Of a DNA stretch of 64,000 bases, positions 22,840 through 64,000 are shown in pieces. The stretch is from the NCBI GenBank assembly GCA_030704615.1, contig CM060733.1, positions 41,726,001-41,790,000 on the forward strand. Direction: 5' to 3'. Under the pieces are notes generated by a model, which did not search any database, was not told the origin of the DNA, and saw nothing but the letters and a program-made list of their open reading frames with translations. The position numbers and the translations under genes are program-made. This DNA comes from Takakia lepidozioides. Taxonomy: Eukaryota > Plantae > Bryophyta. The first letter of the stretch is position 1. Every line of letters starts with the position of its first letter.

Positions 22840-23700
22840 TTGCCGAGATGTAGTGTCGTGGAGTGCGATGCTTGTAGGGTATGCACAACAGGGACGTGGG
22901 ATGGAGGCTTTGGAGACCTATGAAGTTGCGAAGGGAGAGTTTAATAACATGGCTGAACGAGATGTTGTCTCAAGGAACACGCTGAATCTCGCAAGATATG
23001 GCCAGCATGTGTGCGGGATGAGGCATTGGAGACATATGAGCAAATGTTGTGAGAAGGGGTGCAGCCTGACCGGGTCACGTTCATTTGTGTTTGCAATGCA
23101 TGTGCAAACCTGGCAGCCCTGGAGACTTGGTAAAGGGCAAAGAGGTCCATCGTGACATCGTCAAAGCTGGAACTGTACCAGATGTAACAATACCTCGTCG
23201 ACATGTATGCCAAACGTGGGAGCATTCCCTTGTGGACAAGGAGTGTTCAACAATATGGCTGAGCGAAATGTGGTGTGGTGGAACGAGATGATCGCAGGGC
23301 GGGGATTGCGGGTTTTGGAGACCTATGAGCAAATGATGTGGGTCTAGGGGGTGAAGCCCGAGCACATTACGTTTGTTTGTGTTTGTAGTGCATGTACGAG
23401 CCTGTTGGAGAAGGGCAAAGAGGTCCATGGTTGCATCGTCAAAGCTGAAATTGTGGTAGATGCCATTCTAAACATGAATACCCTTCTGGATAGGGAGTGT
23501 TCAACAATATGGCTGAGCAAAATGTGGTGTCGTGGAAAGTGATGATCGCAGGACATGCACAACAGGGGCGGGGATTGCAGGTTTTGGAGACCTATGAGCA
23601 GTTGATGTGGGAGGGGTGAAGTCCGACCACATTACGTTCAGAGAGTTCAAATGCCTCTCCACCATGACCTTGCTTAGCTAACCATGCCTTGCTGATGTTG
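22840..23700 (+). pseudogene. Degraded PLS-class PPR repeats
   Basis: RDVVSWSAMLVGYAQQGRGMEALETYE and GVKPEHITFVCVCSACTSLLEKGKEVHGCIVKA, with many frameshifts; an inverted PPR snippet (AKQGHGGEAFEL) lies near 23645-23690. Confidence 0.88.
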
Positions 23701-25821: not shown

Positions 25822-25932
25822 ATGTTTACGGCACGCAGGAAGATTCAGAAGGAGAAGGGGCTTGAGCTTGATGAGTTTGAAGAGGCTGTAGCCCAGGCCT
25901 TATTCGACCTAGAGACTACAAACCAGGAATTG
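25822..25932 (+). pseudogene. RPS7: 5' fragment of 40S ribosomal protein S7 (eS7)
   Basis: [37 protein letters not shown] matches the plant eS7 N-terminus, then similarity stops. Confidence 0.88.
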
Positions 25933-26181
25933 GGGCGATTTCAAGAGCAGATGCACTGCGCAGCACCTTCATGGCTTATGGACAGGCGACCTGCTGTAAT
26001 GTGGCCGTCTTTGCATGGAATCCAAGGCAAGACCAGCTTGAAGTTCCATAAACTTGGTCTAATTCACATCTCTCGCCAGCAATTATTGTTGGCTTAGAAT
26101 GGTTTCCGCCTTCCTGTTACTGCTCGTGTTTCTGCCCTGTTGTTGTTGTGCATCGATAGCTTCGGCATCTCTCGGGAATCC

Positions 26182-26526
26182 ATGGCGCATGCATTGCTTG
26201 TGAAGCCTTTGGTTCTGGTTAGTCCCGGCAATTGCAGCTCAATTCAGCACCAGCTCCGACAAACCGCCTTCTTGCCTCTCCCTCTGAGATCTGCAAGGAC
26301 GAAATGTGTCGCTTCCAAACCATCAGCAAGCTTGACTTCTGAAGGATTCTGGACTCCTTCATCCAGGGACAGTCACCAAGTCTGGTCCACGAGGAGTGAT
26401 CTGGAGTTACCCACCTCAGCTTATGCTTATGAGGGGCCAATTGCTCAGGGAGGGCAGGGCCCATCACCCATGTTGGCTGAGCGATTCCAAAGCGTGATCA
26501 CTCAGCTTTTTCAACAACGAATCATT
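26182..26526 (+). pseudogene. CLPP5: 5' fragment of plastid Clp protease subunit ClpP5 (transit peptide plus N-terminus)
   Basis: Ser/Ala/Arg-rich leader followed by VWSTRSDLELP...GQGPSPMLAERFQSVITQLFQQRII; no catalytic region. Confidence 0.85.
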
Positions 26527-26599
26527 CCACCTTGGCTGGCCGATACTGCCCGTTCCAGCTGGAGTCGGCATTTTGTGTCTTCACAAAACCAAACAAAAC

Positions 26600-27222
26600 C
26601 AAACCGGATGCTGTGGTGTGGAGGGCCTTGCTTGGTGCCTGCAGAATCCATTGCAACATGGAGGTCGCAGAACGTGCAGCAAAATCTGTACTCAAGTGGG
26701 ATGGACAGGAGGCCGCAGCTTATGTGTTACTTTCAAACATTCCATGCCGCAGCTGGCAGGTGGGCCGATACTGTAAAGGTGAGATATATGATGAAGGCCA
26801 GAGGTGTGAGAAGCCAGGTTTGCTCCTGCATTGTGGTCGACAACAGACTGCACTCCTTTGTTGTAGATGACAGATTGCATCCACAAATTGAGGAAATCCT
26901 TGTTGAGCTAAGAAGGTTGTCCGGACAGATGAAGGAGGCAGGGTACGTTCCTGACACCCACTTTGCATTGCATGATGTGGAGGATGACAATAAGGAAATT
27001 TCCCTTTGTTACCACAGTGAAAGGCTGGCCATTGCTTTTGGGCTCCTCATCACCTCCCCGGGGATGCCTCTCTGTATCATCAAGAACCTTAGGATGTGTG
27101 GTGGCTGCCACACGGCCACCAAGTTCATCTCAAGGATAGTTGGGCGAGCTATTCTTGTAAGGGGTGCAAATCGCTTTCACCACTTCAAAGATGGGGTTTG
27201 TTCTGGTGGGGAGTACTGGTGA
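26600..27222 (+). pseudogene. PPR E/E+/DYW C-terminal fragment
   Basis: KPDAVVWRALLGACRIH...AYVLLSN in one frame; GYVPDT...HSERLAIAFGL...KNLRMCGGCH...NRFHHFKDGVCSGGEYW in another. Confidence 0.93.
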
Positions 27223-27901
27223 GGGGATATTTCCTCGTGGGGTGTGAGTGTATTGTGAGTGTGAGTGTCTCTTTTCATTAATTAGAATTAAGCTGCTGGT
27301 TGGTTCATTTAGGATACCCTGGGAATGTTGGCTTTGACTTACTTGGAGGGTGTCTCCTCCATGGCAAATCAACCCTACATGAGGCAATTTTGGGGTCGAG
27401 CCACGGTACATTGAAACTCAGCCCAAAATTGTGATTGCTCCTTTGTAACGCATGGGAATCAGGTTACAGGCATTCACTATTAGCAGACAGGAAGGTGTAG
27501 AAAATGAAATGTGGATGTCCTGACTTTGCCACTTATGGGACAGCAGACCGTATAATAAGAATGTGCCCATGAGACTTTGTATGAACCTAGCTCAATGGGG
27601 TCCAATGGCCACAAAAATCTAACCCGCACAAGCCCATGTTAGCACATAGAATCAGTTGGGGTGGGGGGGTTGGTCAACTTTAATCCATGGTTCAGATGGA
27701 GGCCACATAATGTTACTCACACCTTGGCCTTCAAAACCCAAATGACAATTTTGCAAATGGGATATTCCAAATGAAGGTAATTGTGTACCTCTTTGATCAT
27801 TGGTGTAGAGGACTCTCCCTGTATAAGAAAGGCTTTCTTTTAGCCTCCCGCATTTTACCAAATAACTTCAGGTGTAGCCAATAGAGTCAGCCTCTACAGT
27901 T

Positions 27902-29225
27902 TCATGTCATTTGTACAGGAGATAACCAAGCATCTTCCAATGCCTCCTCTGCAGTGCACCTCTTAGACTTAAGACTGCTAATAAACCTCTGAGCAGTACC
28001 GCAATGTTGGGATTGCAGAAGTACTCCCAGCTGATACAAATCTGACTGGGGAGTGTAGTGGCCGTCCTCCAACATGTCCTCGCTCCAATCAGCAAAAGGC
28101 AGAAATCCTGCTGGCAATTTGAATGGAGATTCAGCTACCGTTTCAAGGTCTATGAGCATGAACCCCTCCGCTGAAACCTGCACAATATTGGGCAACCGGA
28201 TATCCCTATGGATGAGGTTTGCCACATGCAGGACAGACAAAGCCTTTAACACGTCCCGAGCCAACAGCTTCATATCGTTCTCCGACCTCAACAACGGGGA
28301 GTAGCCCAGCGGACTGATCTCAATATTATAAGTACCTCTACGATCCATTTCAGGCTCTGAAATTACCTCCAGAAGAGAAGGGACCCCTCGTGCAACATTG
28401 TAGCCATGCCAAATCAGTTCAAAAGTGGTCCTTTTCTCAATACAATACCTTGGGAAGTTCCTTATTGCCTTCCGAACACTGCTCGGCTGAAAGTATATCG
28501 TCCTATCCCCACATTCTTCTTCAGAAAACATTGCCCGCCGGCCTGGCACTTCCGGGATTGACTCCACCATCTTCTTCATGATCTCATAGGCATTGCCAAG
28601 GCTGAGTAACAAGAAGAGGCGGTCAGAAAGTTTCGAGACATTAAGACATGGCTTGATTCGAAATGCCCTCTTTCCATCCTTGTCGATATAAACCCATTGG
28701 AAGGCTGTGCCTGCTGCGATATAGCCGAGAATGAATTGAACCTCCCCATACAACATCGGACTAAAGTGGCATCATCTTTCTCAAAATATCCTCTTCAGCA
28801 GCAGGTAAGCTGGCCAGCTTGTCCTCACCAACCAGAAAAGTGCATCCACCGGCAATTCCAATCATGTCAGGCCTCAGCTGTTTTCCAATAGTATTGGTGT
28901 TAGAAGTACCTGTCTTCCTTTCACTAGTATTGAACAAAAGCTGGGCATTCAAAGCAGACATGCAGAACTGGTCATACAAAGAGAATACCATCTTAAAACA
29001 ATTACCCACAAATATGGATACGTCCTGCTCTGATATTGGAGGGGCAACATTGGCAAGCAACAATGCTGATAGCGTCACAGGGAGCTCTGAATCATTTGCC
29101 TCCACGATGAAGTCCCATGCCTCAGAGGGCAACTTCTGTCGGAGTGTCAAGTAGGTAACTTTGCACACAGGAAGCTTTCCGTGATTCGTAGGAAACAATG
29201 CTGCTGTTAGCTCATGCTCCCACAA
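27902..29225 (-). pseudogene. Crinkler-like PD-(D/E)xK nuclease plus protein kinase, with a 1-bp frameshift near 28760
   Basis: LRPDMIG...FLVGEDK, YGEVQFILGYIAAG, IHRDIRLPNIV, LIDLE, SDLYQLG, TAEEALEDAWL. The kinase call is firm; the Crinkler assignment is from motif memory. Confidence 0.72.
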
Positions 29226-29303
29226 AACTCTTGTGAGCTAACAGCAGCATTGTTTCCTACGAATCACGGAAAGCTTCCTGTGTGCAAAGTTACCTACTTG
29301 ACA
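29145..29303. repeat. Perfect 70-bp inverted repeat with a 19-nt loop
   Basis: 29145-29214 is the exact reverse complement of 29234-29303. Confidence 0.95.
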
Positions 29304-34110: not shown

Positions 34111-35393
34111 AAACAAGGAAAAATGAAGAGCATTGGCGGGATTTAAATTAAAACAGCATGTCATGACCGTCCGATCTTACCCTAATCCGATCGAACGGCC
34201 ATAATTTTACATCGAAACTTCATCCAAATCTCATTCATCTGTTGACGTTTCCGTTCACGAGTTTCCGTCCAAAAGTTTCAGTCTATCCCTCGTTTTTTCG
34301 TTCAGTTTGACATTTGAGTATGTCATTCAACATTGTGCATGTATAAATTTGGTTTACACTAGACATGGAGTTGAATGCGCGTGCAAGACCGTGGGCCCTC
34401 CTTGCCTGAGCCATGCACCCGCGCGCTGCCGGAGCCCGCCTGTCAATCCCCCCCCGGCCCCGGCCTCCCCCCCCTCCGCTCCCCTGAGCCTCTGCTCCCA
34501 TGGCATGTTGGTGTGTTGCTGGAGCATAGCAACTTTGTCGAGATGATTGCCGTGTTGGAGCAACCAGAGGCACGATTTGTGAAGGCACAAACAAATGTTG
34601 AACCACCAAGTACTGTTGTGAAGGGCCGTCTTCCAAGGAGTACAAACCCCGCCGCCAGTGTTGTGCAGGTGTCTAGAGGGCCACCTGAGCTTACACTGTG
34701 CAATGTCAGTGGCCGAAAGAGGTCAAGAAGGTCGTTGCAGTGCAGATGTGTTTTGGTCAGTATAGTGCTTTCTCTGATGCAGGGAGGGTGGAGGAGCTAC
34801 CTCTTTCGCAGCGCGCCACAGTTGTTAAAAGAAATCCAAGGAAGCGAGTCATGACGACTGAGGTGAGAAATACTGGAGCAGTCGAGCGGCAACGCAACGG
34901 TGGTGTCTTCGGGTAGGCTTGACGCAGTTAGGGCAGTATGCTGAAGATGGTTTGTCTCCGTCATGTCATACTTCCAGAGCTGATAGAGAAGGCGGGTGGA
35001 GAACTCCCATCTCCAGACAACGAAACTTGAAGATATTGTGTTAAGAATCTGTCGTGCGCATACGTATCGCAACACAACTACATCGCTGTCCAAACCACAC
35101 CACTCATATATGCACAATAAAGTAGTCTACCACAATCGCCCCCCTAGCTGATGGATAGGTCCATCTACCTCCAGATAGCTACAAGATGTAATAGCCACAA
35201 CCGTACTAAGTCCTCTATCACTGTCCCTATTGTGCTCAAACTCTATCGACCAAGAGGCCGGGTACAAGTGTAGCCCCATCGTTAGTCGCCGTCTTGCAAT
35301 CTGTGAACTTAAACCAGGATCTCGTGTGTTCAAGGTCTCCTAGTAGCTGGGCCTTGCGTTTCTTGTTAGCCTTCTATGGTGTATCCACTTTCA

Positions 35394-38300
35394 CTATCCA
35401 ATGCAATGTGGACATAACCAATCCCCATCCGGAACCATCTCAAGAGGTGGTATCAAGCATCCCATATGCCAACCTCGAGAGCATTGATCACACACCAGCA
35501 TGGTGGCTGCCCCTCTAGCAGACCCACACAACATGCACCTCAAACCTGCAGATACCACTGCCAAGTTTGGGTCAATCCTGCCATCGTAGGAGGAAGGTGA
35601 CATGGCGCACAATTACGCACATGGTCCTTCCAAGTTATGCCATCCCGACCCTCCAAGACCAAGACGCCTGAGGGCAAGACCTCTCGAACCCTCAAAATAA
35701 CACGTCATGCGGTCACATCCAAGGTCGTAGGAGCAGTCTGCTGCAGGTAAACATAGTCATCAGGGAATCTCTCCGAACCCCAGGACGATAGCCCCACCAC
35801 GTATGGTAGCATACCTCAACGTATCACGGTGTTGTGCAATGGCAAGGTTCTCGAAAGCCATGGGCATGACTTTCTTGAACAACTCTGCACGCTGCTCACA
35901 TGCACGTGCCCACACGTCCGGATCGTCAAGGTTAAGAACTGTAGCAGCTTCTCTGCGAATGGATGTAGGCAAATCCGCTCTCTCGGCCAAAGAGAAGAAA
36001 GTATGGTGAGAAGGAGGCAAGCGATGCTTGCTTGCTGAACCTGTAGCCCATGGCTAACCAGAGTAACTGAAGGTCCCAATCTCCCAGGTATCCCTTCTGC
36101 AAGCCATACTTGCGCAAACCCCTCTTTACTGTCTGAACAACTCTCTCTGCCAAGCCATCGGCCTCAGGATGATCCCGAGAAGTGGTGCGATGGTCTATCA
36201 AGGCCTTGACACACAAAGCCTGAAACTCCCCCAAGAACTCTCTCCCTTGGTCCGTGAGTACCTCAGCTGGAGCACCGAATCGGCTAAGCACACAATCCAA
36301 GAATGCATATGCAGCTCCCTCACTAGCCTTATCAGGCAATGGAACCAACTCAATCCACTTGGAGAAGTGCTCCACCATCACCAACACGTACTTGTTGTGG
36401 CGTATGGTCAATGGCAACGGCCCTGCAAAGTCAAGACTCCACCTGTAGCCCAATCCCATGATCAGAAGAGGGTGCAATTGTGGAGTAGGGGCGTTGAATG
36501 AAGCACGCACCCTGTCACACACGATGCACCTAGCCACAAATTGTTGCACCTCTGTGTGCATACCACGCCACCAATACTGCCCCTGCAGTAGGCTATAAGT
36601 GTGTCGCACTCCAAAATGCCCCAACTCCTCGTGGGCATGCCGCACTAACCGTGCCCGCTGTGTTGGGTGAGGCACAATCCTCACTTGACCATCCTCCCAC
36701 ACTCGGAGCAGATGTGTCCCCTCCCACTTGAACCTCTTGGCTCGTTGTAGGATCCGATCCCTCTCCTTGGCAGTCATAGTGGCTGCCGTGTCCCCAATGC
36801 GGAGGTAGTCCAACACAACTGAATCCTCATGTATACCTTTGGCGCCACCTTGCTCATTGCTGGCCTCAGGGTCCTCAGACACTTGATCTACAGTCATCCC
36901 TGTTGCAGGTCCAACCTGGCCATCCGCTGCCAAGATACACAGAAATGCAGATGCATGCCATCCCGGCACGTCTCTCACCGTGCCACCGAGCTCCAGTGTC
37001 ATCTTGCTGGCTCGTGCATGGATTGCGACTCAACCCATCTGCATTGCGATTGACCAAAACCCGGTCGATGCACCACCTGAAAGTCATACTCTTGAAGGAT
37101 GAGTGCCCCACCGTGCAAGCTTCCCCGTAAGCTTGTCTGACTCCATCAACCACTTGAGTGGTTGGTGATCCGTGACAAGGGTGAAGAGATTACTGTATAA
37201 ATAGCACCTGGAGTGTGCCACGGCCCACACTGCAGCTAAGCATTCTCCCTCATATGAGCTATACTTAGACTCGGCAGCATTGTTCGAGCGGCTAGCATAA
37301 GCCACTACGAACTCTCTTCCCTCATCATCCACCTGTGTGAGCACCGCTCCAAGCCCCAACATGCTCCAATCTGTGTGCAACTGAAAAGGACGCCCCCTGA
37401 TAGGTCGTCTCAAGATGGGCGCCGAGGTCAACCTCGCCTTGAGCTCTTGGAAAGTTCTTGCTTCTTGCTCATCTTCCCACTGCCACTCCTGGTCCACCTT
37501 GGTCAGCTTGGTTAGAGCCTTTGCAATGGCACTAAATCCTTAACAAACCGTCTATAATAGTTTGCTAACCCCATGAAAGCTCAAACTCGGCTCACATCCG
37601 TGGGGCATGGAACCTGTGCAATGGACTCTACCTTAGTCTGATGTACCCCCAATCCTCTAGGATATATCATGTGACCCAGATACTCAATCTGGTTGTGGAA
37701 AAACTTGCACTTTCCCGGATGTAACTTCAATCCGTGGCGCCTCAAGTGCTCAAATACCCCCTGAAGGTGTCTCTCATGCTCCTCCTAGTAGCACTAAAGA
37801 CGATGATGTCATCTATGTAGCACCGAGCAAACTCCACCCCTGCTAGAATCCTGTCCATGACTCTTTGAAACTCAGCAGGAGCGTTTTTAAGCCCAAATGG
37901 TAAGAACCGCCACTGGTATAGGCAATCCTTCCCGTGCTCATTGATCCCCTAGAATGTCGTCTTTTGCTTATCCGCCTCCTTGATCGGCAACTGGTGATAT
38001 CCGGATCGTAAATCCAATGTGCTAAAGACCTTGGCATGCCCAATGGCATCAAAGATCTCCTCTGATGTCGGCACGGCATACCTATCAGACTTGGTCTGAC
38101 GATTTACAGGCCGGTAATCACCGCACATACGTCTCTCCGTCCAATTGCCATAGACATCCTTCTTGGCTGGCATCACTGTGGCTGAAGCATACTCCCACCA
38201 GAGAGCTCCACCAAACCTGCCTCCCAGAGATCTTGAGTCCTCATCTGAATCAAAGACCTCTCCATGTCACTATATCCATAGGGTCTCCGAAAGATTGACG

Positions 38301-38679
38301 TGTCAGTGGCCAACTCAATACGGATCTCTTGACCCTTCAGTGCTCCCAAGTCCTTCAAACTGAAGGCAAAGCAATTTCTGTAAGCGCTCAGGAACCGCCG
38401 TATATGTCGTCTCTCTCCTCCGGTAACAATGGGTCCAATGGCAGGCTCCCAATTGTCCTCCGTAACTGCAACCTTAAGTCCAATGGGCTTAGAGGTAGAA
38501 GACGCGTCTCGTGGTTGCTATGCTGCAACCTCTTGAGCAGTACTCCCTTCTTGCTCAGTCAATGACAAGGCCTCATCCTGCCCCATCATCTCATCATTGA
38601 GAACCTCCTCAACCCAAGAAGAGTCCCCAATCTCATCCATCACAGCTGCCTTGGCTGCCAACTCCCTCTGAACCTCAGC
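35394..38679 (-). pseudogene. pol: RT, RNase H, integrase, C-terminal PHD finger (frameshifts and stops)
   Basis: RMCGDYRPVN, LDLRSGYHQ, CYIDDII, LHTDWS, SYEGECLA, H-x4-H...C-x2-C, WSLDFAGP, TDQGREF, GLAER; PHD CMLC...CDQCSRGWHMGC...WLCPHC. Confidence 0.95.
38512..38520 (-). promoter_or_regulatory. Putative stop-codon readthrough signal TAG CAA CCA (copy A)
   Basis: In-frame stop between the DNMT linker and RT; fits UAG-CAR-YYA; identical in copy B. Confidence 0.65.
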
Positions 38680-38695
38680 TGCCCAGTGGGGCAAG

Positions 38696-40123
38696 ATGCC
38701 AACACTAGCCGCCTTCACATCTGCAGTTAGTTGGCCTGGAGAGTTGCTGGAGGGCAATGCACATGCAGAGGATGTGCCACCTCCAGCAGAGCAGGATGAC
38801 ATGCATGGTATGGCGGAGTTGCCTGCCATGGTTGCTCACACTCCATTGTGGGGTACGAGCAAGGATTTGCAGCAGGCTGCTGATGAACGGGTGCAACAAG
38901 CTTGGGTAGAAGCTTTCGTACCGTCAGGGGAGGAGGAGAGTGTGGTGATTGCACCAGGACCACCTCAGTTGTCACCATTGGATACCACACCTATTGTGTG
39001 GCAGTATCCGGATGAAGGCATTTGCCTTCTGGACTTGTTTGGCGGGATCAGCACCGGATTGGCTGTTGTGCTACAGGCAGATATACGAGTTCGACATTAC
39101 CTGTATGTAGAGAGGGATGAGACTGCACGACGCGTCTCACTGCGCCATGTTGCTCAGATGGTGCAGCAGTACCCTGAGTTGTTGCCGGTGTCTGCAGTTC
39201 GTGGATATCAGCAGGCCTTGCCAGCAGACATTGCGTTGCTGGGGGCGCATGATTTGGAGCGGGTTGGCTCCATTGATCTGGTAGTGGCAGGTTGGCCCTG
39301 CCAAGGGCATTCATCAGCCGGGCATGGCAATGGATTGCGGGACTTGAGGACGGGTCTGTTTTGGGAGATGGTGCGGATTTTGCGCCACTTGCAACTTCAT
39401 CAAGCTGTATCTCCCGCATACATCTTGGAGAATGTGCCACTGATGGGTGATTCTCGGGCTAGGCTGATGGCCAGTGTGCATCAAGTCCGGTCATGGCTTG
39501 GGTTAGCAGTGTTGCTGGATGCAGCTGCAGTGGGGTCACGGGCTCATCGTCCACGGCTATGGTGGACTAACTTGATGCCACCCGCACTGCTCAAGCGTGC
39601 ATTTGATGGGGTGGAGCGGCTAGCACACCTCACAGTGGATAGCATTTTGGACACAGGGAGGCAGTCTCAACGTGTGAGAAACCACGACCGTTCGCCTTTG
39701 GCAGTGATCAATAGGGTGGGTCAACCACGAGCAGCATTACCTACACTGCTCAGCTTCCCAGGATCCCATGCTTTTTGGGATGGTGGACCTGGCCTCATGT
39801 GGGATGCTCAGTTGCAAAAGTTAGTGGAGCCTAATGCCGACGAGCGAGAGCGGGCTATGGGGTTTTCCACTAGGACCACGGCGGTGCCTTCTTTTTTTGA
39901 GGCATCACGTCGTCAGGTGTTGGGGCAAGCAATGGATCTCAATTGCTTGACCTGGATTATCAGCTTGGCTATGGCTGAGCAACGTAGAGTGCGGAGTGCA
40001 CTTCCCTTGACGGTCTCTCTGCCTACCGAGACGGTACAGGCAGCGAGTGGGGGCGAGCCGGTGAGGACCACGGGGTGTAGACATCCATGGCACACGTGGG
40101 AGGTGAAGAGCTTGTACTGGTAA
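38696..40123 (+). CDS. C5-cytosine DNA methyltransferase domain, uninterrupted (element homology ends near 40104)
   Basis: Canonical motif order: I LDLFGGIS, II YVERD, IV AGWPCQG, VI ILENV, VIII AHRPRLWWTN, IX ERERAMGF, X LGQAMD. Confidence 0.95.
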   Translation: MPTLAAFTSAVSWPGELLEGNAHAEDVPPPAEQDDMHGMAELPAMVAHTPLWGTSKDLQQAADERVQQAWVEAFVPSGEEESVVIAPGPPQLSPLDTTPIVWQYPDEGICLLDLFGGISTGLAVVLQADIRVRHYLYVERDETARRVSLRHVAQMVQQYPELLPVSAVRGYQQALPADIALLGAHDLERVGSIDLVVAGWPCQGHSSAGHGNGLRDLRTGLFWEMVRILRHLQLHQAVSPAYILENVPLMGDSRARLMASVHQVRSWLGLAVLLDAAAVGSRAHRPRLWWTNLMPPALLKRAFDGVERLAHLTVDSILDTGRQSQRVRNHDRSPLAVINRVGQPRAALPTLLSFPGSHAFWDGGPGLMWDAQLQKLVEPNADERERAMGFSTRTTAVPSFFEASRRQVLGQAMDLNCLTWIISLAMAEQRRVRSALPLTVSLPTETVQAASGGEPVRTTGCRHPWHTWEVKSLYW

Positions 40124-40331
40124 AGAATTGGATTCCAAAGGATATTCTGTGGATCAAACTCACACCAAGAACAACTTTCCAGACTTGTTTGCCATATGGT
40201 TATATGGTAACAGAGACTTCTAGTATAGCCAAAGGTGCATTGAAGCTTGAAAGAAACCCAGGCATATACGAGAGATACTACAGAAGCGAGTTTTGGTTAC
40301 TGCCACATTAAGGAAATGAAAGACATGGGAC

Positions 40332-40950
40332 ATGAGTGATGAAAGAGAAGCTAGACTCCAGAGATATTCAGCAAAAAGAGAAAGTTATCTGAAAACTAAT
40401 TATCCATATCTTTGGGAGAGGGGAATAGACATAGGGGAATCATCTGGACCTCTCACACCATTAAGATCAGAGAGTACATCACCCATACCGGAAGAACTAG
40501 AGTTGGATGCCACTCCTTCTTTTTCTTTGCAAGAAAGATTAAGGGAATTGGTACGGGAAGAAGATCAACCACGAGGTGAAAGATCTGAGGTACATCCCTG
40601 GATAAAAGATTTGACAGAAATCTTTGAGAAGAGTTGGCATGGAACACCAAAAGCAGGAACTCCAGTTTCTGAAACGGAAGGTGAAGAAGGAGGAGAGGAT
40701 GTGGCAGAGCCAACGGAGAGTTCAGACTCTCCAACACCATTGGGATTGATAAGAGGAGTTAACATACAGATACAAAAGATGATTTTTATGATCACAGTAA
40801 CTGTGTTGAAGATGGATGAAGTCATGGAGGCTTACTCCTTATTATTGGGATGTCCGTGGCTGAAACAGGCCAGGGTATTCCATGACTGGAATTCTCAGTT
40901 ACTAACTGTGCATAATGGGATGCACAAGATACAAATTACCACTAAGGATC
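40332..40950 (+). mobile_element. Internally deleted gag/protease fragment of an unrelated Ty3/gypsy element
   Basis: PLGLIRGVNIQI...YSLLLGCPWLKQARVFHDW is the C-terminal half of a retropepsin. Confidence 0.7.
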
Positions 40951-41139
40951 AGGCTTCGTCGCTTGGACAAATCGGCACCGCATTCCTTCCCATCGCTGCA
41001 TCCCCCTTCTACCAGGGAGCTTCCCCGCACGCCATCCTGGCAGTCTTGTGTGCACATCTCCCATGGCGGAGAACCCGAGCGCTACAGTGTACTGCCCTCC
41101 TCACGAGCATAGAGCTTCATTTCGGAGAGGTGTCGGCCT

Positions 41140-41760
41140 CTCCGCCGCTCTGTGGGATATTCGGTGCCGAATTTCCGTCCGGCGGTTGAAATATGTTGGC
41201 CAGGTGTCGACCTCTCCCCCCTCCCCGACTGCAGGTAATTCGAACCCGGATTGAAATTCGGCGCCGTTTTCCCATCTGGGAAGGTTTTTATGTCGGCCAG
41301 TTTTCGGTCTGACCCCCCGACACGACTTCATTTGGGAGGGCCCGGATGGAAATTTGGCGCCGAATCTCCATCCAGGGGATGCTCTCTGTCGAACACGTGC
41401 CGACCTCTACGCCCGAGGCGACTTCATCCGGGCGTCCCCTGTTCGATATTCGGTGCCGAATTTCCGTCCGGGGGTTGAAATGTGACGGCCAAGTGCCGGC
41501 CTCTCCCCCCTCCCCGAGTGCATCCGAACCGCCCCGGATGGAAATTCGGCGCCGTTTTTCCATCTGGGGATGTTTTATGCCGGCCAGTTTTCGGCCTGAC
41601 CCCCCGACACGACTTCCTTTGGGGGGGCCCGGATGGAAATTCGGCGCCGAATCTCCATCCAGGGGATGTTCTCTGTCGCACACACGCCGGCCTCTGCGCC
41701 CGAGGCAACTTCATCCGGGCTTCCCCTGTTGGATATTGGGTGCCGAATTTCCATTCGGGG
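41140..41760. repeat. ~96-bp tandem repeat (7 units, ~290-bp higher order) with palindromic core ATTCGGYGCCGAAT
   Basis: Cores near 41157, 41253, 41351, 41447, 41541, 41637 and 41733; each unit best matches the one three units along. Confidence 0.85.
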
Positions 41761-41933
41761 GTAGTAATGTGACGGCACGGTGCCGGCTTCTCCCCTTCAG
41801 CCGTCATCATCCGGACGGCCCCCCACTTTCTGACTGCATACCGTTGGCAGTTATTGCGCAAAGACCAGGGGCCGCATTCCGGTGACAAGGTTCATTAACA
41901 CTCTGACTCTGGATTTTTGAGATAGTTGGCTCC

Positions 41934-43110
41934 ATGGAGAACGACCACGGAGCTTCTCGTGCCCACACTTCCGATGAGGTGGATAAATGGGATCCCCATT
42001 GGCAAAGGCGAAATGAGGAGTTCGAGAGATTGATTGCTACTGATCCTCTTTTCCAGCACTTGTCCGGAAAGATGTTTTACATGTGGGACGGCAATCATCG
42101 CCTTCTGGCATGGATGGAATACATAGCCCAAGCCCACCCCAACGACCTGGATTGGCATTTCGCCGTGGAGTGTGTTGTGCTCAAGGTTGCAGGGCCCAAA
42201 GATCGCAGTCTTCTCAAAGCGGCAATGGCAGACATCAACTCGTAAGTTACAATGCTTCTTGCTTTGGAACTTTGAATTTGAAACAGTCATTTCATTGCCA
42301 ATCGTCATATTTGTTGCAAATTCTCATTTCTGTATTGTTTAATGGAAATGTGGCATTGCAGGGTGACTGAGAATGTCTTCATTGCCACCAACTTGTCCCA
42401 TATGCTCTTCCGAGTGAAGGCTGTCAGGAAGCAAGGGGTGCAAAAGTTTGCCAATTCGCTCAGTGCCGACCTCCTGCGCAAGTCGGAGGCAAAGGCAGAC
42501 AGACCTGAATAGGCTGAGCATGGACGCCATGGTGGACTACATATTTCGGGTAAAGCTCCTCACTGTTTTGTTGAGCTAATCTGTCTCTCCTCCCCCAATA
42601 GAAGAAAAAGTGTTGAGCAGGATCTCTAATCTTATGTGCGCATTCTGACAGACGACGAAAATTCAACAGGATTTGGCACATGCGCGGAGGTTCTACGTGG
42701 AGTCAGAGAAAGAAACTAAAACCGACACTAGAATCATATCTCAAAGCTGCGGAGGCGAAGGCCCGCATCAAGTATAAGTCGCGGATGGTAAAGTACGTGG
42801 CCATAGCTGATCCCGCCCTTGGTGCCGATTTTCTGGTGGAGGTGGGGAAGCACTACTCCCGCGCTCTGAAGCCCACGATGACATTGGAGAAGCTGCATCG
42901 TCTAGGCACATCATATGTGGATGCAACAGAAAAGGTTATACATTCTTAACCGAATTGTCGTGGCAGCAATTCGTTTTTGTGGTGTTTGACACTTACTAAT
43001 ATGCTGGGTGGTTGGACAGACCCGGTGGCTCCAAATCTGGAACGGTTCCCAAAGTACAAGGACATGTGGAGCTTCCCCAAACCCGACAAACTGTCCGACC
43101 CCAAAAATAA
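41934..43110 (+). pseudogene. Spliced gene fragment with a ParB/sulfiredoxin-like DGNHR motif
   Basis: MFYMWDGNHRLLAW; GT-AG intron 42242-42361 gives DINSVTENVFIATNLSHMLFR; further exons near 42669-42934; lesions in exon 2. Confidence 0.55.
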
Positions 43111-43389
43111 ATAGGTTCATTTATTTGGATGAGGTCCATCAGCAGAGCTTTGAGAGTTTTTTACGTCAGTGGGGACCCCAACTAGGAATAAATATTGTTT
43201 TGGTAGATATATGGACGTATCATCATCTTCAGAGTCGCAACTATGACGTTGATTTGAATGTTGATGCAACCATAGCTAGAGCTTGTGTTTACGAGGATTC
43301 TTGCTTAGAGTTAGATGTGAAAAACAAGTTTTAGGCGAATAAGCTCTAGTTTTGAGAGTTGGAAGGTAGAGCCCCTGCTTTTGCAAAAG

Positions 43390-43800
43390 TACTTGGCTTG
43401 GATATGGTGTGCCCTCTTTTGACCAAGTCTAAGGGATATCGTTACCTATGTGTGGTGACAAATTACTTGACCAAGTGGATTGATGGAGACAACATTTGTT
43501 CTCCTAGGATATTGATTATGTAGTTCAGTTCTTTTTCAATGCAGAGATTATCTTACGCCATGGTTGTCCGCATGAAATCCTAACACATCAAAGAAAAGAG
43601 TTCTTGTAACCAATTGCTCTCGGTGGCCGTGTGCTTCAGCCTTGATGTGAAACAATATTCTACCGTTACGCCCTATCATCCTCAAACTAATGGACTCTTG
43701 AGATGCTTCAATCAAACTCTATGTCAGATGCTAAAACGTAGTGGTGTTTTAACTCATGATTGTAATACTTTCTTGTCCTCTTACATTTGCCTATAGGACT
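43390..43800 (+). mobile_element. Degraded Ty3/gypsy integrase core fragment
   Basis: NYLTKW, IILRHGCPHEILT, TPYHPQTNGL...FNQTLCQML in shifting frames. Confidence 0.8.
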
Positions 43801-44785
43801 GCCGTGCCTAATACTAGACAGATGTATTTTTAGATGGTTTATGTGAGAACTTGGGTTTCTTCTATATCCATGCTACACCATTGGTGTCTACCATGGCTAA
43901 CCCACGTGACCTTGATACTTTTCTTGAGGACTTATAGGCTTACAGTGAAGTGGTGCTTTTTACAGGCCAAGGCTAAGATCATGGTGCCACAAGCTCATAA
44001 TTACAACAAATGGGTTAAGTATGATGCTCAGTTTTAGATGGAATTCAATATTTGCATACTAGAGGTACGACACATTTCTTTCGGAGAGAAGCCCCCGAAC
44101 CCCAAGAACCAACTACTTATACAAGTTAGGGTTCAATCCTGCTTGGGTTTGGAACATCATGGCCAAGGCCACCTTGTTGGTAATATACCCTACAAACCTT
44201 CTTCACCTTTCTCCCAAGAGCTTGGGCAATGGAGGCTCAACTACAAGGAGAGGACTCAGCCCCCTCCACCCACCACATGAGATTTTATAAGGATCCAAAT
44301 GAGACATATGCCAAATGAGGTCCCAACACCAAAAATACAAAGAGCTTGACTAGAACAGGAAACCCAAAATAAACAAAGCCTCAAACAGCATTGAGCTCTC
44401 TTCTTTTGGCAAAACATAGAGGGGAGGTGAGAGTAAGGGGCATGACTCAGCACAACACACAAATCGGAGCCTTTGACACGGTGTAAGGTCCTTTGACCAC
44501 ATTTTCTCCATTGACTTCAACGAGCCAATAAAAAACAATCTAATAAGTAAAATTAACTGTTAAATAAGAAGACAATCATACATTCTCTAATACTGAAAAG
44601 TGTAAGTGTAATCGATGGTGTGATTAGACAGTGCTGCCATGGCCGGCTCTTGGGAGAGGGGGAGGGTGAGGGAAACGATGAAGAGGGGTAGAGATGGGCA
44701 CGAGGTTGGGGAGGAATGCGAGTGGATAAGTCTGGGAAATGCTACTGCACAATGTTTTTCGTGAGGGTCAGATCGCACAGGGGGG

Positions 44786-47700
44786 TTGACTTCGGCCTGG
44801 AGGGGTAATTTGCATCCCTGTACTGGATTCCAACTCACCCTGTTGGGCCTTTTGTTAGTGTCCCTCCCTCTAGTATCTGCGGCCCGGAACTTCGTGATTG
44901 TTTGGGAGGACGATGATACTAAAGATGGCGGAGAGGCGGGTGCCAACGGTGAAGAATTTAGCATGTCAGATGCCGCAGAGGACAGAGGGGGCCGGATCGG
45001 ATGGACAGATGGGCCGGATTCTGCCATTGAGTGGGATGAGTTTGGGGATACTGAAGAAAAAGGGGACGAGGATTTGATCCGGGTTCATGGAACCATGTTC
45101 TGGAGCAGTCCCATGCGCGGAAGAAAACGGAGGCAATGAGGTATGTAGCATATCTATACACACCTATTGATCTTATTCTGTGTTACTTCCTTTTCTCAAT
45201 GGCAATCCCCGAGCTTCTTCACCGGAAAATTGCACCTTCTTACATTGACTGTAGTGTGCAGAAAGCAAGAATGTACCAATACTGTGGAAGAGTTTATGGT
45301 TTTAGGGTTTCCTTACGTTGTCCGTATTGCAAGGAGTGAGTACGTGTAAACCCTAGCCCTAAGCTTAGAATCGATGGCGAATTTCAAGAAAATTGCAGGC
45401 CTTTATACTGAGATAAATTTGGAATTCAAATTTCTCTGGAAAGATCACTGACTGGGGTAGGTTTTGATTTTGTAGTAATGCATTTTGATGGCTTACCTGC
45501 ACCCAAACATCTACAATAGAGGTTCCCAGGAAATTCAAGAATCTGCCAACAGATATGAGCGGTCTGAAATTTTTCCTTCGTGTTGAGTGGGTGTATCACC
45601 GACACGCCACAATAATTACTGTTTGTCTGATGTTATGGACTGGTAGCAGGTCTGGTTGTGCCTGGAGTCTTAGGGTTAAGCCATAATGGAATTGTAGTGC
45701 AACAACCTTTACAGCTTATGTTAATGGTTACCCATGGTCCATCATCAACCCTTGGAACTTCCACCTCACCATCTTTGGAGTTATGCTTAAACTGTTTTTG
45801 AGTGCAACATGCGTGCAGTATGCCATCGGAGTAAGAAAACTGATCGAGGGTGTAAGCGAGGGGGAGTCAGATGTTCTGAAGGAAGCCATTAAGCATCTGA
45901 AGTCAGAGGCAGATAATGGGAATGCACATGCACAATCGACCTTTGCATTTTTGCACGGTGCTGGTTATGGTGTGGAGCAGAGCGATGCAAAAGCATTTTT
46001 GTTGCACCATTTTGCAGCAGAAGGTGGGAACTTTCAATCAAAGATGGCCCTGGCCTACAGCTACTCCCGGCAGCAGGTGTGGGTTTAGTCCATATTGCAC
46101 TGATATGGGTACATCGCGAAGTTTTAAGATGCCTCATAGTGTTCAATAGATTCTCATATGCCGAACTACCTGTGACATGTTTCCATTAGTCACATCTAAT
46201 TTTATCTGTCATTGTCTTTCTTGATTTCCCCATTTCTCCTAGAACTATGAGGCAGCAAGAAGGCTTCCCTTATGCCCTTTCTTTCCTTTGCACAATCCAA
46301 GCATGTCTACCCTCTAAAGCAATTGAAGCTGCCTCACTTGGCCCCATTATGCACACCCACCAACCAATAGATTAGCGACATGCAGAGAATGCAAGGCTTA
46401 ACGGCTTCACAGTTGTTACCCATGTCCACTTTAGCTAGGAGACATTCTTGGATTGCAAGATAGAAAGAAATGACTGCATACCAGTGGGTGGGAGGGTGGT
46501 AGTATTTCTTGCAACAGTACATCAGCAAAGCAAGGCATTGCTTAGGCTGTTACAGCAGCACTCAGCCCTGTGTTGTGATACTGAGCAACACTTGAAAGTA
46601 AAGAGCCTAAGTTAGTACCTTGAAGCCACAGTTCCTGGCACTGAGGTCACTGCTCCTTCAGCTCCTGCCTGCTCTTCCAAATGAGAAGAGCAGCCAGGGC
46701 TTCTAACATTATGGGGCAGCCTCTTTCTGACCATGTAGGACAGCTGCTTTAGGTTAGGACCTAGGGAGAACCCCCGTTATCCCTTCCATTCTAGGCAAAA
46801 AAAGCCAAACAGAATTAGGGAATTAGGCAATTCTTTGAGTGGTGCTACCAAAAACTTAGCCACCATCAAGATACAAGCAGGAAAGAGAGGCAGAGAGGCA
46901 AAAGTCCTCAAGCCTCTCATTTTCAGGTTTCCTAATTCTGACACAAGGCATGGGCTCAGCTGCAGGTATAAACTTATTTTCCCACAACTGCCATCAAGTG
47001 ACTCACAGAAGCACTTGTCTGCATGCAAACTCAACAGCTTGGTTGCAGGGTTATGGACTTTATTTTATAGCCCTGCGTTTACCACAGAAATGAGATGCCC
47101 TTCACTCTGGATTGTGTGCAGGGTTGGAGAGAGAATGGTTCAGTCATGTCAAGAATTGTCCAGTCCTAGATGATTTGGATCTAGTTGTGTTTTAGCTTAA
47201 CGACACCACACATCTGGACATGATCCATCTCCTTCAATATAACCACTAGCAATTACATGTAAATCAAACAATTTCTGCAAAGCTTGGATTTGTGAGTATA
47301 CAGGCTTTGACGTAAGGTCCCTCCTAGTTTCCATAGGTAGAATAGAAGCCTCAAAAGGTTCATACTAGAATACTTATTGTAGAATCTATACAAAAGTTAA
47401 AATTGCAGCCCTGAAGTCATAGCTCAGCAATCAGGGGATTGGTTCTCTAAAGCAGTTCTGCAAACTGAGAAGTCTCCATGTGGGCATACTTGAGCCCCGA
47501 GGAGGTCATAGTGTCAAAATGCAGCCATCTACCTATTTCAATGTTGGTATGAAGAGTTACAGTAGGTGGATTCTTGTAAAACGGATCAGGAAATGGCAAG
47601 GCTGCCACTGGTGATCAGATCCTAATGTCTTCCTACAGTCCAACAAACATTTGAATAGCACAAACAAATGTTTACTCTCAACATTCCACACCAAGCATGA

Positions 47701-50700: not shown

Positions 50701-51380
50701 TAGTGCATCTGTCTTCTGAAAGCGTCCAAAAGACAGTCTTTACTCTACTGAAAGTGCATCCAACAGATGGCCGGTGGCTAGGGCACAAGTCTGCCTTGCA
50801 AGTGGAAGGGGGTTTAAATCTGTCAGTTGGGTGCCAGCCATTAAAGCCCCTAGCCATAAAGAGGTGGTTACTAGGTAAATTGGTCACTTAATGTCGTAGG
50901 GCGTTTAGAGTTCTTGGGGAAGGGATTCAATAATGGGTTAGAGGGTGTCTGCCTACCAAATGGATGGCAGTAGTCCAAGGTGAAGAGACACCAGAGACAT
51001 GCTTGTTTCATGTCCGCCTCTTGTTTGTTTACTGAACTCAGCTCTGATGGAGCAGGCGGCTGCACTATACAAGATAGTGGCAGAAAGGGGTCCCTGGGGT
51101 TCAATCATGCGGTGGGCATTGGAGTGCTATGTGAAAGGCCAGGCAAGGCTCTTCTCTTCTCCTTTACTCTCGTGCAGCTGAGCTTGGCTACGAGGCTGCC
51201 CAGAGCAATGCGGCGTGGATTCTGGAGAAGTACCATAGTGAGGGGGTTTGCCTTGGGAAATCGGGAGTTTGCACAGATATGGAGCGACACCAACGGGCAC
51301 ATACCTTGTGGCGCTATGCTTCAGAGCAAGGCAATGAGCATGCAGCACTACTCATTGGAGATGCGTACTACTATGGCAGG
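44786..51380 (+). pseudogene. HRD3: HRD3/SEL1L ERAD component, 6 exons, frameshifted and 3'-truncated
   Basis: Exons ~44786-45140, ~45819-46076, 48714-48899, 49341-49645, 50132-50350, 51056-51380; signal peptide, EWDEFGD, DPGSW, Sel1 repeats, [11 protein letters not shown]; frameshifts near 45075, 49497 and 51142. Confidence 0.92.
46248..48195. repeat. Two diverged ~500-bp direct repeats (46248-46769, 47698-48195) in HRD3 intron 2, possibly LINE 3' remnants
   Basis: Shared blocks such as ATGTCTACCCTCTAAAGCAA, CTGCTCCTTCAGCTCCTGCCTGCTC and TTAGGACCTAGGGAGAA. Confidence 0.7.
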
Positions 51381-60025: not shown

Positions 60026-63000
60026 CCGAAGCTCAGGCAGTCCAATTCTGGTATGGGATATTGGACAAGGAGCTGAGGAGAAGGGTGCGGGATGCAACTC
60101 TCCTACAAGCGGCACAACCCACCTTAGCAAATGTGTTTTTGCTGGCAGAGCGGATAGAGCTCAACATGGTGGAGGAATGAGTGGTCATGGTGGGATTTGC
60201 TAAGGAGACCCCACGGGGTAGTGGTGCTCCTAGCCAACCACTACCTCCACGTGCTCAAGGCAACAAGGGGGCTCAAGTGAAGCTCAGGGAAGGGCAGAGA
60301 GGACCTCAAATGCAGGGGTCTCTCCCTTCATTTGCAGGCCAACACCGGGCGGATGTGGTATGTTGGACATGTGGAGGACCCCATGTCAAGAAGGATTGCC
60401 CAGAGGGAGGCAAAGGGCTAGCATATGCACAGCCTGCACAGTTGCAGTGTGGGCATTGTGGCAAGCACGGGCATGGAGAGGCCCAGTGTTATGACTTGCA
60501 TCCTGAGTTGCGCCCAGGCCAATTCCAAGGGAACAATGGTGGCCGGGGGCGGGGTGGAGCAGCCCAGAGAGGACAAGGTGGCCAGGCACGAGGTGCAGGC
60601 CAAGGACCAGCTCAACATGGCCAAGGACGCGGAGGTCAGGGTGGTGACCAAGGCATGGCCAACCGGCTTCAGCAGCTAGAGCAGAGGCTCGCTGCCATGG
60701 CTACAGCTCAGGTGGTACCGGCTCCAAGGCCGGATGGTCCACCTCTTGCTCCTGAGGGAGGAGATATAGGAAGCATGGGATTCACGTGCGGAGCAGCACT
60801 ACCACTAGTGTAGGTGGAGTCTGCTGCAGCCGTGACTCGAGGAGCAGCATGAGTTCCTGAGCCGCGAGGTGCAAAGGTGGAATCGGATCCACAACGTGGG
60901 GAGGCAAGCCGTCAGGCGAGGCTTCCTCAGTCATTCACATTGGCGGAGACAGTGTCGACGCCATCCATGGCACCTAGTTCTCGCCCGACTGTTACCGAGG
61001 CGGAGGTTACTATGCCATTGGGGAGAGCTACATGGGTAGCACCACTACCTAGTGTTGCAAAGGTTGCGGCAGCTAGTGTGCTGTTGGGAGCGGCCACATC
61101 TGTGTGTCAGGCTCCATTGTTCTCAACTACCATGATTGCGACGCCGGGGGTAAGACCAGCTGAGGTGTTCAGACTGGCAGCTACACTCTGTGAGAGTGGG
61201 GAGGTTACTTCATCTTCTGCGGAGATAGTGGGAGGTGTAGTGCCGGAGGGATCCTTAGATTTGAGGGTCAAGACTGCCACGGCGGCGCCATGGCAAGCTG
61301 CAGTTGCCAGGTTGATGGAGCTGCCAGCTAGGCCAGCCATTGAGCGCGCCATGGTGACACCTGGAGTTGTCTTGTTAGACAACCAGGATGGCATTTTCTG
61401 TTTGAGTGGACCGGTATGCAAGAGGTACTGGCCACTGCGGGTCTTGTTGGACTCGGGAGCTCAGCCATTGATGTTGGGCAAAGCTGCTATTGCAGGCTTG
61501 GGCCTCACGGAGGCGGATATGGATCCTTGTCCTTTCCAGATACATACGTCCCTGGGAGGATTGGAGCAGGCTCGGGGCATGACACGGCATGAGTTGGCTA
61601 TCAGATTACGGCCGGGTCACCCTACAGATGGCTCAGTGATGCGGGCCAAGGCCATTGTGACAGACGCGGTCTTGTATGATGTCCTGGTTGGTGGGGCAGT
61701 GTTGTACCCCATGGGCTTCACCCTGGATTTTTGGGAGGAGTCATCTTCCTATAGGCCTGGATGGCAGTCAGGGTAGGGCCGACGTGTGCAGCTCCCTGTG
61801 ACGTTCATAGGAGGAGTTGCGGTTGCCCAACGAGGCAAGATGCCGACACTGGCAGCATTCACAGCTGCAGTGACTTGGCCTGAAGAGTTGATGGAGGGCA
61901 ATGCCCATGCAGAGGATGTGCCACCTCCAACAGAGCAGGATGACATACATGGTACAACGGAGTTGCCTGCCATGGTTGCTCACACTCCATTGTGGGGTAC
62001 GAGCAAAGATTTGCAGCAGGTTGTTGATTGTCGTGTGCAACAAGCCTGGGTAGAGGCTTTTGTACCGTCAGGAGAGGAGGAGAGTGCGGATATTGCACCA
62101 GGACCACCTCAGTTGTCACCATTGGATACCACACCTATTGTGTGGCAGTATCCGGATGAAGGCATTTGCCTTCTGGACTTGTTTGGCAGGATCAGCACCG
62201 GATTGGCTGCTGTGCTACAGGCAGGTATGCGGGTAAGGCGTTACCTGTATGTGGAGAGAGATGAGACTGCACGATGTGTCTCACTCCGTCATGTTGCTCA
62301 GATGGTGCACTAGTACCCTGAGTTGTTGTCGGTGTCTGCAGTTCGTGGATACCAGCAAGTCTTGCTAGCAGACATTTCGTTGCTGGGGGCGCAGGATTTG
62401 GAGCAGGTTGGCTCCATGAATTTGGTAGTGGCAGGTTGGCCCTGCCAAGGGCATTCATCAGCCGGACATGGCAATGGATTGCGAGACTCGAGGTCGGGTC
62501 TGTTTTGGGAGATGGTGCGGGTTTTGCGTCACTTGCAGCTTCATCAAGCTGTATCTCCAGCATACATCTTGGAGAATGTGCCACTGATGGGCGATTTTCA
62601 GGCCAGGGTGATGGCCAGTGTGCATCAAGTCCGGTCGTGGCTTGGGTCAGCAGTGTTGCTGGATGCAGTTGCAGTGGGATCACGGGCTCATCGTCCACGG
62701 CTATGGTGGACTAACTTGATGCCACCCGCACTGCTCAAGCGTGCATTTGATGGGGTGCAGCGGCCAACACACCTCACAGTGGATAGCATTTTGGACATAG
62801 GGAGGCAGTCGCAACGTGTGAGACACGATGACCATTCGCCTTTGACAGTGGTCAAAAGGGTGGGTAAACCACGAGCAGCATTACCTACACTGCTCAGCTT
62901 CCCCGGATCCCATGCTTTTCGGGATGGTGGTCCTGGCCTCCTGTGGGATGCTCAATTGCAACAGTTAGTGGAGCCTAATGCCAACGAGCGAGAGCGGGCT

Positions 63001-64000
63001 ATGGGGTTTTCCACCGGGACCACGGCGGTGCCTTTTCTTTCTGAGGCATCACGTCGTCAGGTGTTGGGGCAAGCGATGGATCTCAATTGCTTGACCTGGA
63101 TTATCAGCTTGGCTATGGCTAAGCAACATAGAGTGCGGAATGCACTTCCCTTGACGGTCTCTCTGCCTATCGAGACGGTACAGGCAGCGAGTGGGGACGA
63201 GCCGGTGAGGACCACGGGGTGTAGACATCCATGACATATGTGGGAGGTGCTCGAGGTTCAGAGGGAGTTGGCAGCCAAGGCGGCTTTGATAGATGAGGTT
63301 GGGGATTCTTCTCGGGTTGAGGAGATCCTCAATGATGAGATGATAGGGCATGATGAGGCCTTGTCATTGATTGAGCAGGCAGGGAGTACTCCTCAAGAGG
63401 TTGCGGCATAGCAACCACCAGACGCGTCTTCTACCTCTAAGCCCACTGGACTTAAGGTTGTAGTTACGGAGGATAATTAGGAGCCTGACATTGGATCCAT
63501 TGTCACCGGAGGAGAGAGACGACGTATACGACGGTTCCTGAGGGCTCACAGGAATTGCTTTGCCTTCAATTTGAAGGACTTGGGAGCACTGAAGGGTCAA
63601 GAGATCCGTATTGAGTTGGCCACTGACACGCCAATCTTTCGGAGACCCTATAGATACAGTGACATGGAGAGGTCTTTGATTCAGATGAGGACTCAAGATC
63701 TCTGGGAGGCAGGTTTGGTGGAGCTCTTTGGTGGAGAGTATGCTTCAGCCACAGTGATGCCAGCCAAGAAGGATGTCTATGGCAATTGGACGGAGAGACG
63801 TATGTGCGGTGATTACCGGCCTGTAAATCGTCAGACCAAGTCCGATAGGTATGCCATGCCGACACCAGAGGAGATCTTTGATGCCATTGGGCATGCCAAA
63901 GTCTTTAGCACTTTGGATTTACGATCCGGATATCACCAGTTGCCGATCAAGGAGGCGGATAAGCAAAAGACGGCATTTTGGGGGATCAATGAGCACGGGA
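60026..64000 (+). mobile_element. DNMT-carrying Ty3/gypsy element, copy B: gag-PR-DNMT-linker-RT in one frame; 5'-truncated and runs off the window
   Basis: ORFs at 59983, 60181, 60877, 61786 and 62323 and the RT start share a single frame, separated only by point stop codons; two Zn knuckles, DSGA protease, PCQ/ENV methyltransferase, RMCGDYRPVN. Confidence 0.96.
63409..63417 (+). promoter_or_regulatory. Putative stop-codon readthrough signal TAG CAA CCA (copy B)
   Basis: In-frame GCA-TAG-CAA-CCA, same position and context as in copy A. Confidence 0.65.

Follow-up and report, generated by a model that had tools for sequence, protein, structure and literature searches.

What does a PHD finger do at the end of a retrotransposon integrase, when the same element carries a DNA methyltransferase? 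The question is raised by a Gypsy-type element in a stretch of 64,000 nucleotides (the window), for which the initial annotation proposed that integration sites are chosen by the state of histone H3 and that the element pre-marks its own DNA, a chromatin reader being paired with a methylation writer. We analyzed the finger, the copy in which it lies and its relatives, and asked whether the two domains work together.

The finger itself was found exactly as described. A frame on the minus strand (35397-35612) runs for 72 codons from stop to stop, with two stops at its end, and the motifs CMLC, CDQC, H-x2-C and WLCPHC occupy its residues 26-70 (35537-35403). All eight zinc ligands are present in the canonical Cys4-His-Cys3 spacing, a tryptophan precedes the last cysteine pair, and only two more residues follow before the stops. 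The match to Pfam PF00628 scores 45.2 bits (E 9.3e-12, cut-off 24). In an AlphaFold model of the relative P0001, which is 88% identical over the PHD stretch, the finger superposes on the solved fingers of BAZ2A, ATXR5, UHRF1 and BHC80 at ~1-2 A. It was also correctly noted that a neighbouring chromovirus has a chromodomain at the same place: the element at 14494-21395 (minus strand), ~14 kb from the studied copy and bounded by 96% identical LTRs and a 5-bp duplication, carries PF00385 (34.2 bits, 16105-16257) in the slot of the PHD. The coding part of this chromovirus is CpG-rich, with a C3pG1 observed/expected ratio of 0.98 against 0.17-0.60 elsewhere in the window.

The studied copy is dead and rearranged (Table 1). 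Between the integrase core and the PHD there are three frame changes, near 35.98, 35.79 and 35.59 kb, with stops between them. The C5 methyltransferase domain is present (PF00145, 46.9 bits, 38672-40120), and its block 38680-40105 matches 61824-63249 of a sister copy directly (92%), while the adjoining reverse transcriptase part matches 63253-64000 in reverse (94%). This inversion has a sharp junction at 38676-38680 and the block ends at 40105. The description of the PHD as the end of pol thus holds for intact near relatives and not for this copy, where the finger is out of the integrase frame; likewise, the methyltransferase with which it was paired exists and is inverted relative to pol here. 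The gag-protease piece further along the window is possibly the 5′ half of the studied copy. No A1/A2 or B1/B2 repeat pair was found and no target duplication was located in the studied copy, and the window ends before the integrase of the sister copy. The 11.4 kb between the methyltransferase block and the gag-protease piece (40106-51499) is other DNA, which contains a second high-depth gag-protease-like ORF (40320-41186), 96-bp tandem repeats (41150-41822) and Sel1-repeat exons (49295-50470).

Table 1. Features of the studied copy and of family pieces in the window.
Position	Strand	Feature
35050..35135	-	single B-type terminal repeat, 3′ end of the studied copy (relatives: B1-A2-B2)
35139..35145	-	likely polypurine tract (PPT): purine tract kept in relatives, directly before the terminal repeat
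35394..35612	-	stop-to-stop frame with linker end and PHD, then stops; out of frame with integrase in the studied copy
35403..35537	-	PHD finger, C4HC3, last Pol domain; structurally of the KDM5-PHD1/BAZ2 type, without aromatic cage
35543..35975	-	C-terminal part of integrase, in three frames: long helix, SH3/Tudor-like barrel, linker containing an invariant Cys
35980..36675	-	integrase H2C2 zinc finger and DDE core (PF17921, PF00665), within ORF 35932-37029
37084..37539	-	RNase H (PF17917, 111 bits)
37540..38676	-	frameshifted reverse transcriptase and its upstream spacer
38680..40105	+	DNMT3-like C5 methyltransferase block in the opposite orientation to pol; catalytic motifs unrearranged
51500..~54900	-	gag-protease piece, same family and orientation as pol, 11.4 kb away
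60028..64000	+	sister copy: gag-PR-DNMT-RT, one frame with stops, ends at the window edge

Contigs from public sequencing runs showed that the damage is private to this copy. The family is very abundant, with 54,749 same-family contigs from run X1 (summed contig depth in X1 is not a copy number, and runs X1 and X3 are of one sample, which may be that of the window). Family depth begins in the bin 34987-35173 and is continuous across integrase and PHD. Most same-family contigs differ from the studied copy at the first two frame breaks; at the third, about half differ in X1 and few in X3. In contigs the reverse transcriptase adjoins the methyltransferase end the normal way round (X1, 22 loose ends; X7, record 27). 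The frame breaks and the inversion are specific to the studied copy.

Elsewhere the window, which looks like plant DNA by its PPR-DYW pieces, contains a 116-bp tandem array of at least 12 copies (1-1520); long ORFs without a Pfam match at 6830-12766 beside a Ulp1 protease domain (12275-12763), together possibly a DNA transposon; in the region 22800-29300, PPR repeats that include a DYW domain (26098-27219), part of a ribosomal S7e gene within 25492-26094, a kinase ORF at 27905-28771 (minus strand) and a perfect 70-nt inverted repeat at 29145-29303; and a CYTH domain at 56270-56623 (minus strand).

With the PHD frame as query, 9 proteins were obtained from 30 candidates, one of them a chain with RNase H, integrase and PHD, and cluster members added further relatives beyond these 9. 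Integrase and PHD lie in a single ORF in the near proteins P0006, P0079, P0081, P0083, P0084 and P0089. The initial annotation was to be given up if the finger proved out of frame with integrase in intact copies; the near relatives encode the two together, and these in-frame relatives also refute the idea that the PHD is a chance host fragment. Source names of relatives include Marchantia, Sphagnum, Closterium, Volvox, Tetraselmis and Pseudoscourfieldia. PHD clusters in the Atlas come from Chlorophyta and Streptophyta, and an integrase-PHD cluster there, at a score of 0.78, serves as a lead only. No relatives were found among viral contigs, and none of those recovered bears the name of K. nitens.

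The frequency of both domains was determined in sets chosen blind to them. From metagenomes, loci were picked by the integrase core alone; 80 were kept of 176 confirmed, and these are 64 distinct loci at 98%. The PHD is present in 49 of the 51 distinct copies that are long enough (55/58 before removal of duplicates), and the methyltransferase lies between protease and reverse transcriptase in all 24 distinct copies that have both (28/28). Both domains were found together in 21 of 21 distinct copies testable for both. A stop-free read from integrase into the PHD was seen in only 6/80 loci, as expected with mostly decayed copies. Proteins of 1296-4127 residues, a range that favours elements with extra domains, were likewise searched by integrase alone, with 49 hits. 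Among the 40 closest (query included), 38 have the methyltransferase, 32 the PHD and 31 both, and integrase and PHD share one ORF in 32; the nine distant hits were set aside as an outgroup, with a PHD in one and a methyltransferase in none. Several of the eight long proteins without a PHD end early, and P0099 has a divergent Cys/His pattern. P0132 (Closterium) has the methyltransferase and ends apparently without a PHD; in P0134 the PHD stands between RNase H and integrase, and a methyltransferase is missing. The pairing suggested by the initial annotation is the rule in the family. The relatives are kin, so that co-occurrence shows joint inheritance and not coupling.

Substitution patterns indicate that the PHD finger is under purifying selection (median pN 0.22 versus pS 0.63, n=37; for comparison, integrase pN 0.13 and pS 0.72, n=68). 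For the methyltransferase a single pair of decayed copies gave pN 0.059 and pS 0.114.

Complete loci have the order A1-gag-PR-DNMT-RT-RH-INT-PHD-purine tract-B1-A2-B2, in which A is ~340 and B ~115 bases long. This DIRS-like repeat layout was seen as an A pair in 5 of 13 long loci and as a flagged B pair in 22 of 48 (L018 and L064 are doubtful). Target duplications of 4 bp flank four of the five complete loci, and three of these four have TG...CA ends. Loci L014, L027, L048, L074 and L078 are DDE-integrase elements of this kind, with split direct repeats (A1 ... PPT-B1-A2-B2) and 4-bp target duplications. The Gypsy order PR-RT-RH-INT, with a DDE integrase, is found in the family. The best PDB matches of the methyltransferase are DNMT3A, and its motifs are colinear and unrearranged.

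The two domains differ in how freely they have moved. The methyltransferase lies in frame between protease and reverse transcriptase in the sister copy, P0013 and P0035. Of 96 rows, 44 have it before reverse transcriptase, 41 have it in the stretch from RNase H to integrase, and 11 are unplaced. Forty of the 44 before-RT rows form one branch (FastTree support 99; 4 rows were skipped for length), and several small groups recur in the integrase tree, a quick tree whose weak deep support (82-94) gives no order of events for the slots. The PHD, in turn, stands ~1000 residues downstream of the methyltransferase. In every protein with both domains it follows the methyltransferase and lies behind integrase. 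A linker cysteine is invariant in 65/65 aligned proteins and is parted from the first PHD cysteine by 21 residues in 62/65. This cysteine (P0001 residue 151; ~35.60 kb in the window) is followed by His in 55/65 and preceded by a second Cys in 45/65; one more zinc may be bound here, on the way from the barrel to the finger. The PHD is the end of the protein in near relatives, and distant ones have tails of 11 to ~590 residues; tails of up to ~590 residues (P0039-P0073, P0101-P0133) carry no annotation. In the P0001 model (pLDDT 87.6, pTM 0.51) a long helix is followed by a beta-barrel, after which come linker and PHD. An earlier fold from 15 sequences was discarded (pLDDT 48.5), as was a likeness to the Tudor-PHD tandems of PHF1 and UHRF1 (top Foldseek matches), since with an rmsd of 12-14 A it reflects merely two similar domains in a row.

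The DNMT3 ADD is a GATA-like finger plus a PHD directly before the catalytic domain. The family has a different layout, with the PHD downstream of the methyltransferase, at a fixed distance behind integrase, and the methyltransferase in two slots; the analogy with ADD drawn in the initial annotation is not supported. Since its spacing behind the SH3-like domain is fixed while the methyltransferase occupies two slots, the PHD looks like an integrase accessory rather than an ADD-like methyltransferase guide.

What the finger could bind was considered by comparison with solved PHDs. The closest sequences in the PDB are CHD4, KDM5A/B PHD1, PHF12, ATXR5 and PHF21A, and the alignment with KDM5A is ungapped. 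The fingers of CHD4, PHF12 and ATXR5 read unmodified H3. The same is stated for KDM5A/B and BHC80 in the available part of bioRxiv 10.1101/715474, according to which KDM5A PHD1 holds H3 Ala1 in L309/P331/G333/W335, Arg2 on D312 (essential) and D315, Lys4 on E305 and backbone carbonyls, and Arg8 on D292, with a ~6-fold loss of binding in each of E305A and D292A. The studied PHD keeps the Ala1 pocket (L309, P331, G333, W335) and the Arg2 aspartate D312, and has Ala, Ala, Ala and Ser at D292, E305, D306 and D315. The pocket was followed in 37 distinct complete fingers (what was left of 64 loci with a PHD hit after removal of the broken and the duplicate), where W and L are kept in 37/37 and D in 36/37; D is kept in 26/26 distant relatives.

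An acid at E305/D306 is absent from the studied copy, from all 37 loci and from all 13 near proteins (0/51 in the near sub-family overall), and is present in 20/26 distant proteins; these counts leave out fingers whose loops differ in length. Acids are missing from the C2-C3 loop in the studied copy, in 32/37 loci and in 13/13 near proteins. There is no aromatic cage: the only two tryptophans are at the KDM5A Y318 and W335 positions. Two residues before the His, which we take to be the position of the cage tryptophan, the studied PHD has Gly, and an aromatic residue is found there in 0/77 fingers. As the near sub-family lacks the Lys4-contacting acids, reading of the H3K4 state by it is doubtful, and the proposal that integration sites are chosen by H3 state is weakened for this branch, by this lack and by that of a methyl-lysine cage. 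The near PHD is predicted to be a weak anchor for the H3 N-terminus with little K4 discrimination; we say little because backbone contacts to Lys4 could remain. With four acids gone, H3 should be bound less tightly, and so the finger may have another ligand.

We consider it probable that the PHD tethers integrase to nucleosomes through the H3 end, much as a chromodomain would, and that the methyltransferase is a separate activity directed at the element's cDNA. Integrase-PHD would contact the free end of H3, with Ala1 and Arg2 as the predicted contacts and likely with little reading of Lys4 methylation; integrase multimers would help such a tether, which would affect insertion sites. Chromodomains in the same integrase slot are reported to direct integration in the accessible parts of PMC6673714 and bioRxiv 10.1101/2021.11.30.470311. 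The protease would release the methyltransferase from integrase-PHD, and the enzyme would act separately as cargo, methylating the element's own cDNA, a target proposed in 2018 (PMC5890265, available text). A CpG signature of such self-methylation was tried and rejected: the family ratio (observed/expected 0.49-0.51, against 0.86-0.88 in the neighbouring chromovirus) is equalled or undercut by the majority of 2-kb bins in the window, and in 26/28 loci the element body has a higher ratio than its flanks. The family value of ~0.5 is the window background and so gives no sequence sign of self-methylation. Against a view without coupling it may be said that the near-complete presence of the methyltransferase (21/21) is what coupling would predict too, though shared descent explains it.

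Could the PHD instead be a structural or protein-binding part of integrase, packed on the SH3-like domain or holding a non-histone N-terminus or a host factor, and no histone reader at all? The loss of all mapped acids but one and a C2-C3 loop that is acid-free in most fingers would suit this, as would the invariant extra cysteine and fixed linker that tie the finger to integrase. The finger has retained its Ala1 pocket and the Asp for Arg2, however, and the model shows no fixed packing of barrel and finger (with the low pTM given above), and we regard this role as unlikely, if still worth weighing. A truly coupled reader-writer, in which unmethylated H3K4 is sensed by the PHD and the methyltransferase is thereby guided or activated, as ADD does in DNMT3, so that copies and flanks are methylated at chosen chromatin, appears less likely again. 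The two domains do occur together from chlorophytes (Volvox, Tetraselmis and Pseudoscourfieldia by source names) to relatives from Marchantia and Sphagnum. In the larger distant group the methyltransferase stands directly before integrase, so DNMT-integrase-PHD could stay one protein, and the PHDs of this group keep the acidic patch (20/26). In the 2018 yeast assay, as far as the available text of PMC5890265 goes, activity was detected only for SymbioDIRS-Dnmt3 domains, with the K. nitens domain among those tested, and an isolated K. nitens domain not reported as active would fit a missing partner; the same result speaks against a methyltransferase that acts separately on cDNA. On the other hand, there is no ADD-like adjacency, the methyltransferase slot varies at constant PHD-integrase spacing, the near sub-family is without K4-contacting acids (0/51), and each domain occurs without the other (P0132 for the methyltransferase; P0134 and Gypsy-7a_cRei, in which none is seen or listed, for the PHD).

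The most far-reaching version of coupling we hold to be similarly improbable: an ancient green-lineage clade with a chromatin-guided methylation unit, in which integrase-PHD docks on unmodified H3 and brings or activates the DNMT3, and of which the near, likely land-plant branch kept the dock and dropped K4 sensing. If true, such a unit would methylate the new copy and its flanks, best where DNMT-integrase-PHD is contiguous. Finally, heavy rearrangement of the studied copy and its out-of-frame PHD might suggest that the domain is a passenger or came by accident from the host, but the PHD stands at the same place in nearly all distinct copies, is under purifying selection and lies within continuous family depth across integrase and PHD, and this explanation is hardly credible.

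By way of small soluble domains, this family allows tests of two general problems: how chromatin is selected by retrotransposons, and for what reason some of them bring along a cytosine methyltransferase. It offers natural contrasts, as the PHD differs at H3K4-contacting residues between two branches and relatives without a PHD or without a methyltransferase exist. To the Gypsy-DNMT3 kind, which was described from a single alga, the present analysis adds a family of high copy number whose host is likely a land plant. New here are the trait-blind co-occurrence counts, the contrast of a fixed PHD with a methyltransferase in two slots, the arrangement of the repeats together with the 4-bp duplications, and the finding that acids contacting K4 were lost in one branch.

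Parts of this picture are already in print. Literature searched outside figures, bioRxiv supplements and most subscription papers held no statement of a PHD-plus-DNMT3 pairing or of its land-plant spread. One lead, a PHD in Selaginella Selgy or SM-Fogey, was dropped, the term having 0 occurrences in the accessible parts of PMC6317226 and PMC3350952. In the portions available, PHDs are described as widespread in retrotransposons, with a proposed part in guiding insertion (PMC6673714, PMC9940879, PMC8557442, bioRxiv 10.1101/2021.11.30.470311), Ginger1 transposases can carry one (PMC2836005), and PMC12344493 mentions retrotransposon DNMT3s without a PHD.

At the level of the single domain, KDM5A/KDM5B PHD1 (PDB 7klo, 2mny) are the closest solved sequences and share the Ala1 pocket, the Arg2 Asp and the cage-free fold, from which the studied PHD departs by its Ala, Ala, Ala and Ser for D292, E305, D306 and D315. 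Chlamydomonas REM1 and Gypsy-7a_cRei share a PHD in a Gypsy polyprotein that is proposed to steer insertions; as far as the accessible text of PMC9940879, PMC8557442 and PMC6673714 goes, the legend for Gypsy-7a_cRei lists no methyltransferase. Chromoviruses such as MAGGY share a histone-reader domain at the integrase C-terminus (PMC6673714, bioRxiv 10.1101/2021.11.30.470311, in part). Unlike them, the family has a PHD in place of the chromodomain, a barrel without the GPY/F letters, repeats that are split where theirs are plain LTRs, and a methyltransferase. A chromatin reader and a cytosine methyltransferase in one LTR element are already in print for the chromodomain-bearing EpiLTRs (bioRxiv 10.64898/2026.05.21.726589). 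In the part of that source available, EpiLTRs carry a chromodomain, DAM and a DNMT4-related enzyme, and their authors separate them from Gypsy-DNMT3; no DAM hit was obtained in the ORFs scanned, and the family has the PHD and a DNMT3-like enzyme instead.

The nearest known system is KnitGypsy-Dnmt3 (PMC5890265), with which the family shares an unrearranged DNMT3-like domain in a Gypsy Pol and DIRS-like repeats joined to Gypsy domains, as far as the available text describes them. The word PHD has 0 occurrences in its main text and three supplement files, and Fig. 4c (domain architecture) may draw one. Judged by the split repeats and 4-bp duplications of its relatives, the family appears to match KnitGypsy-Dnmt3 and has to that extent been partly described since 2018. 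In the available text that element is described from Klebsormidium only; the family studied here has a likely land-plant host, chlorophyte relatives and two slots for the methyltransferase.
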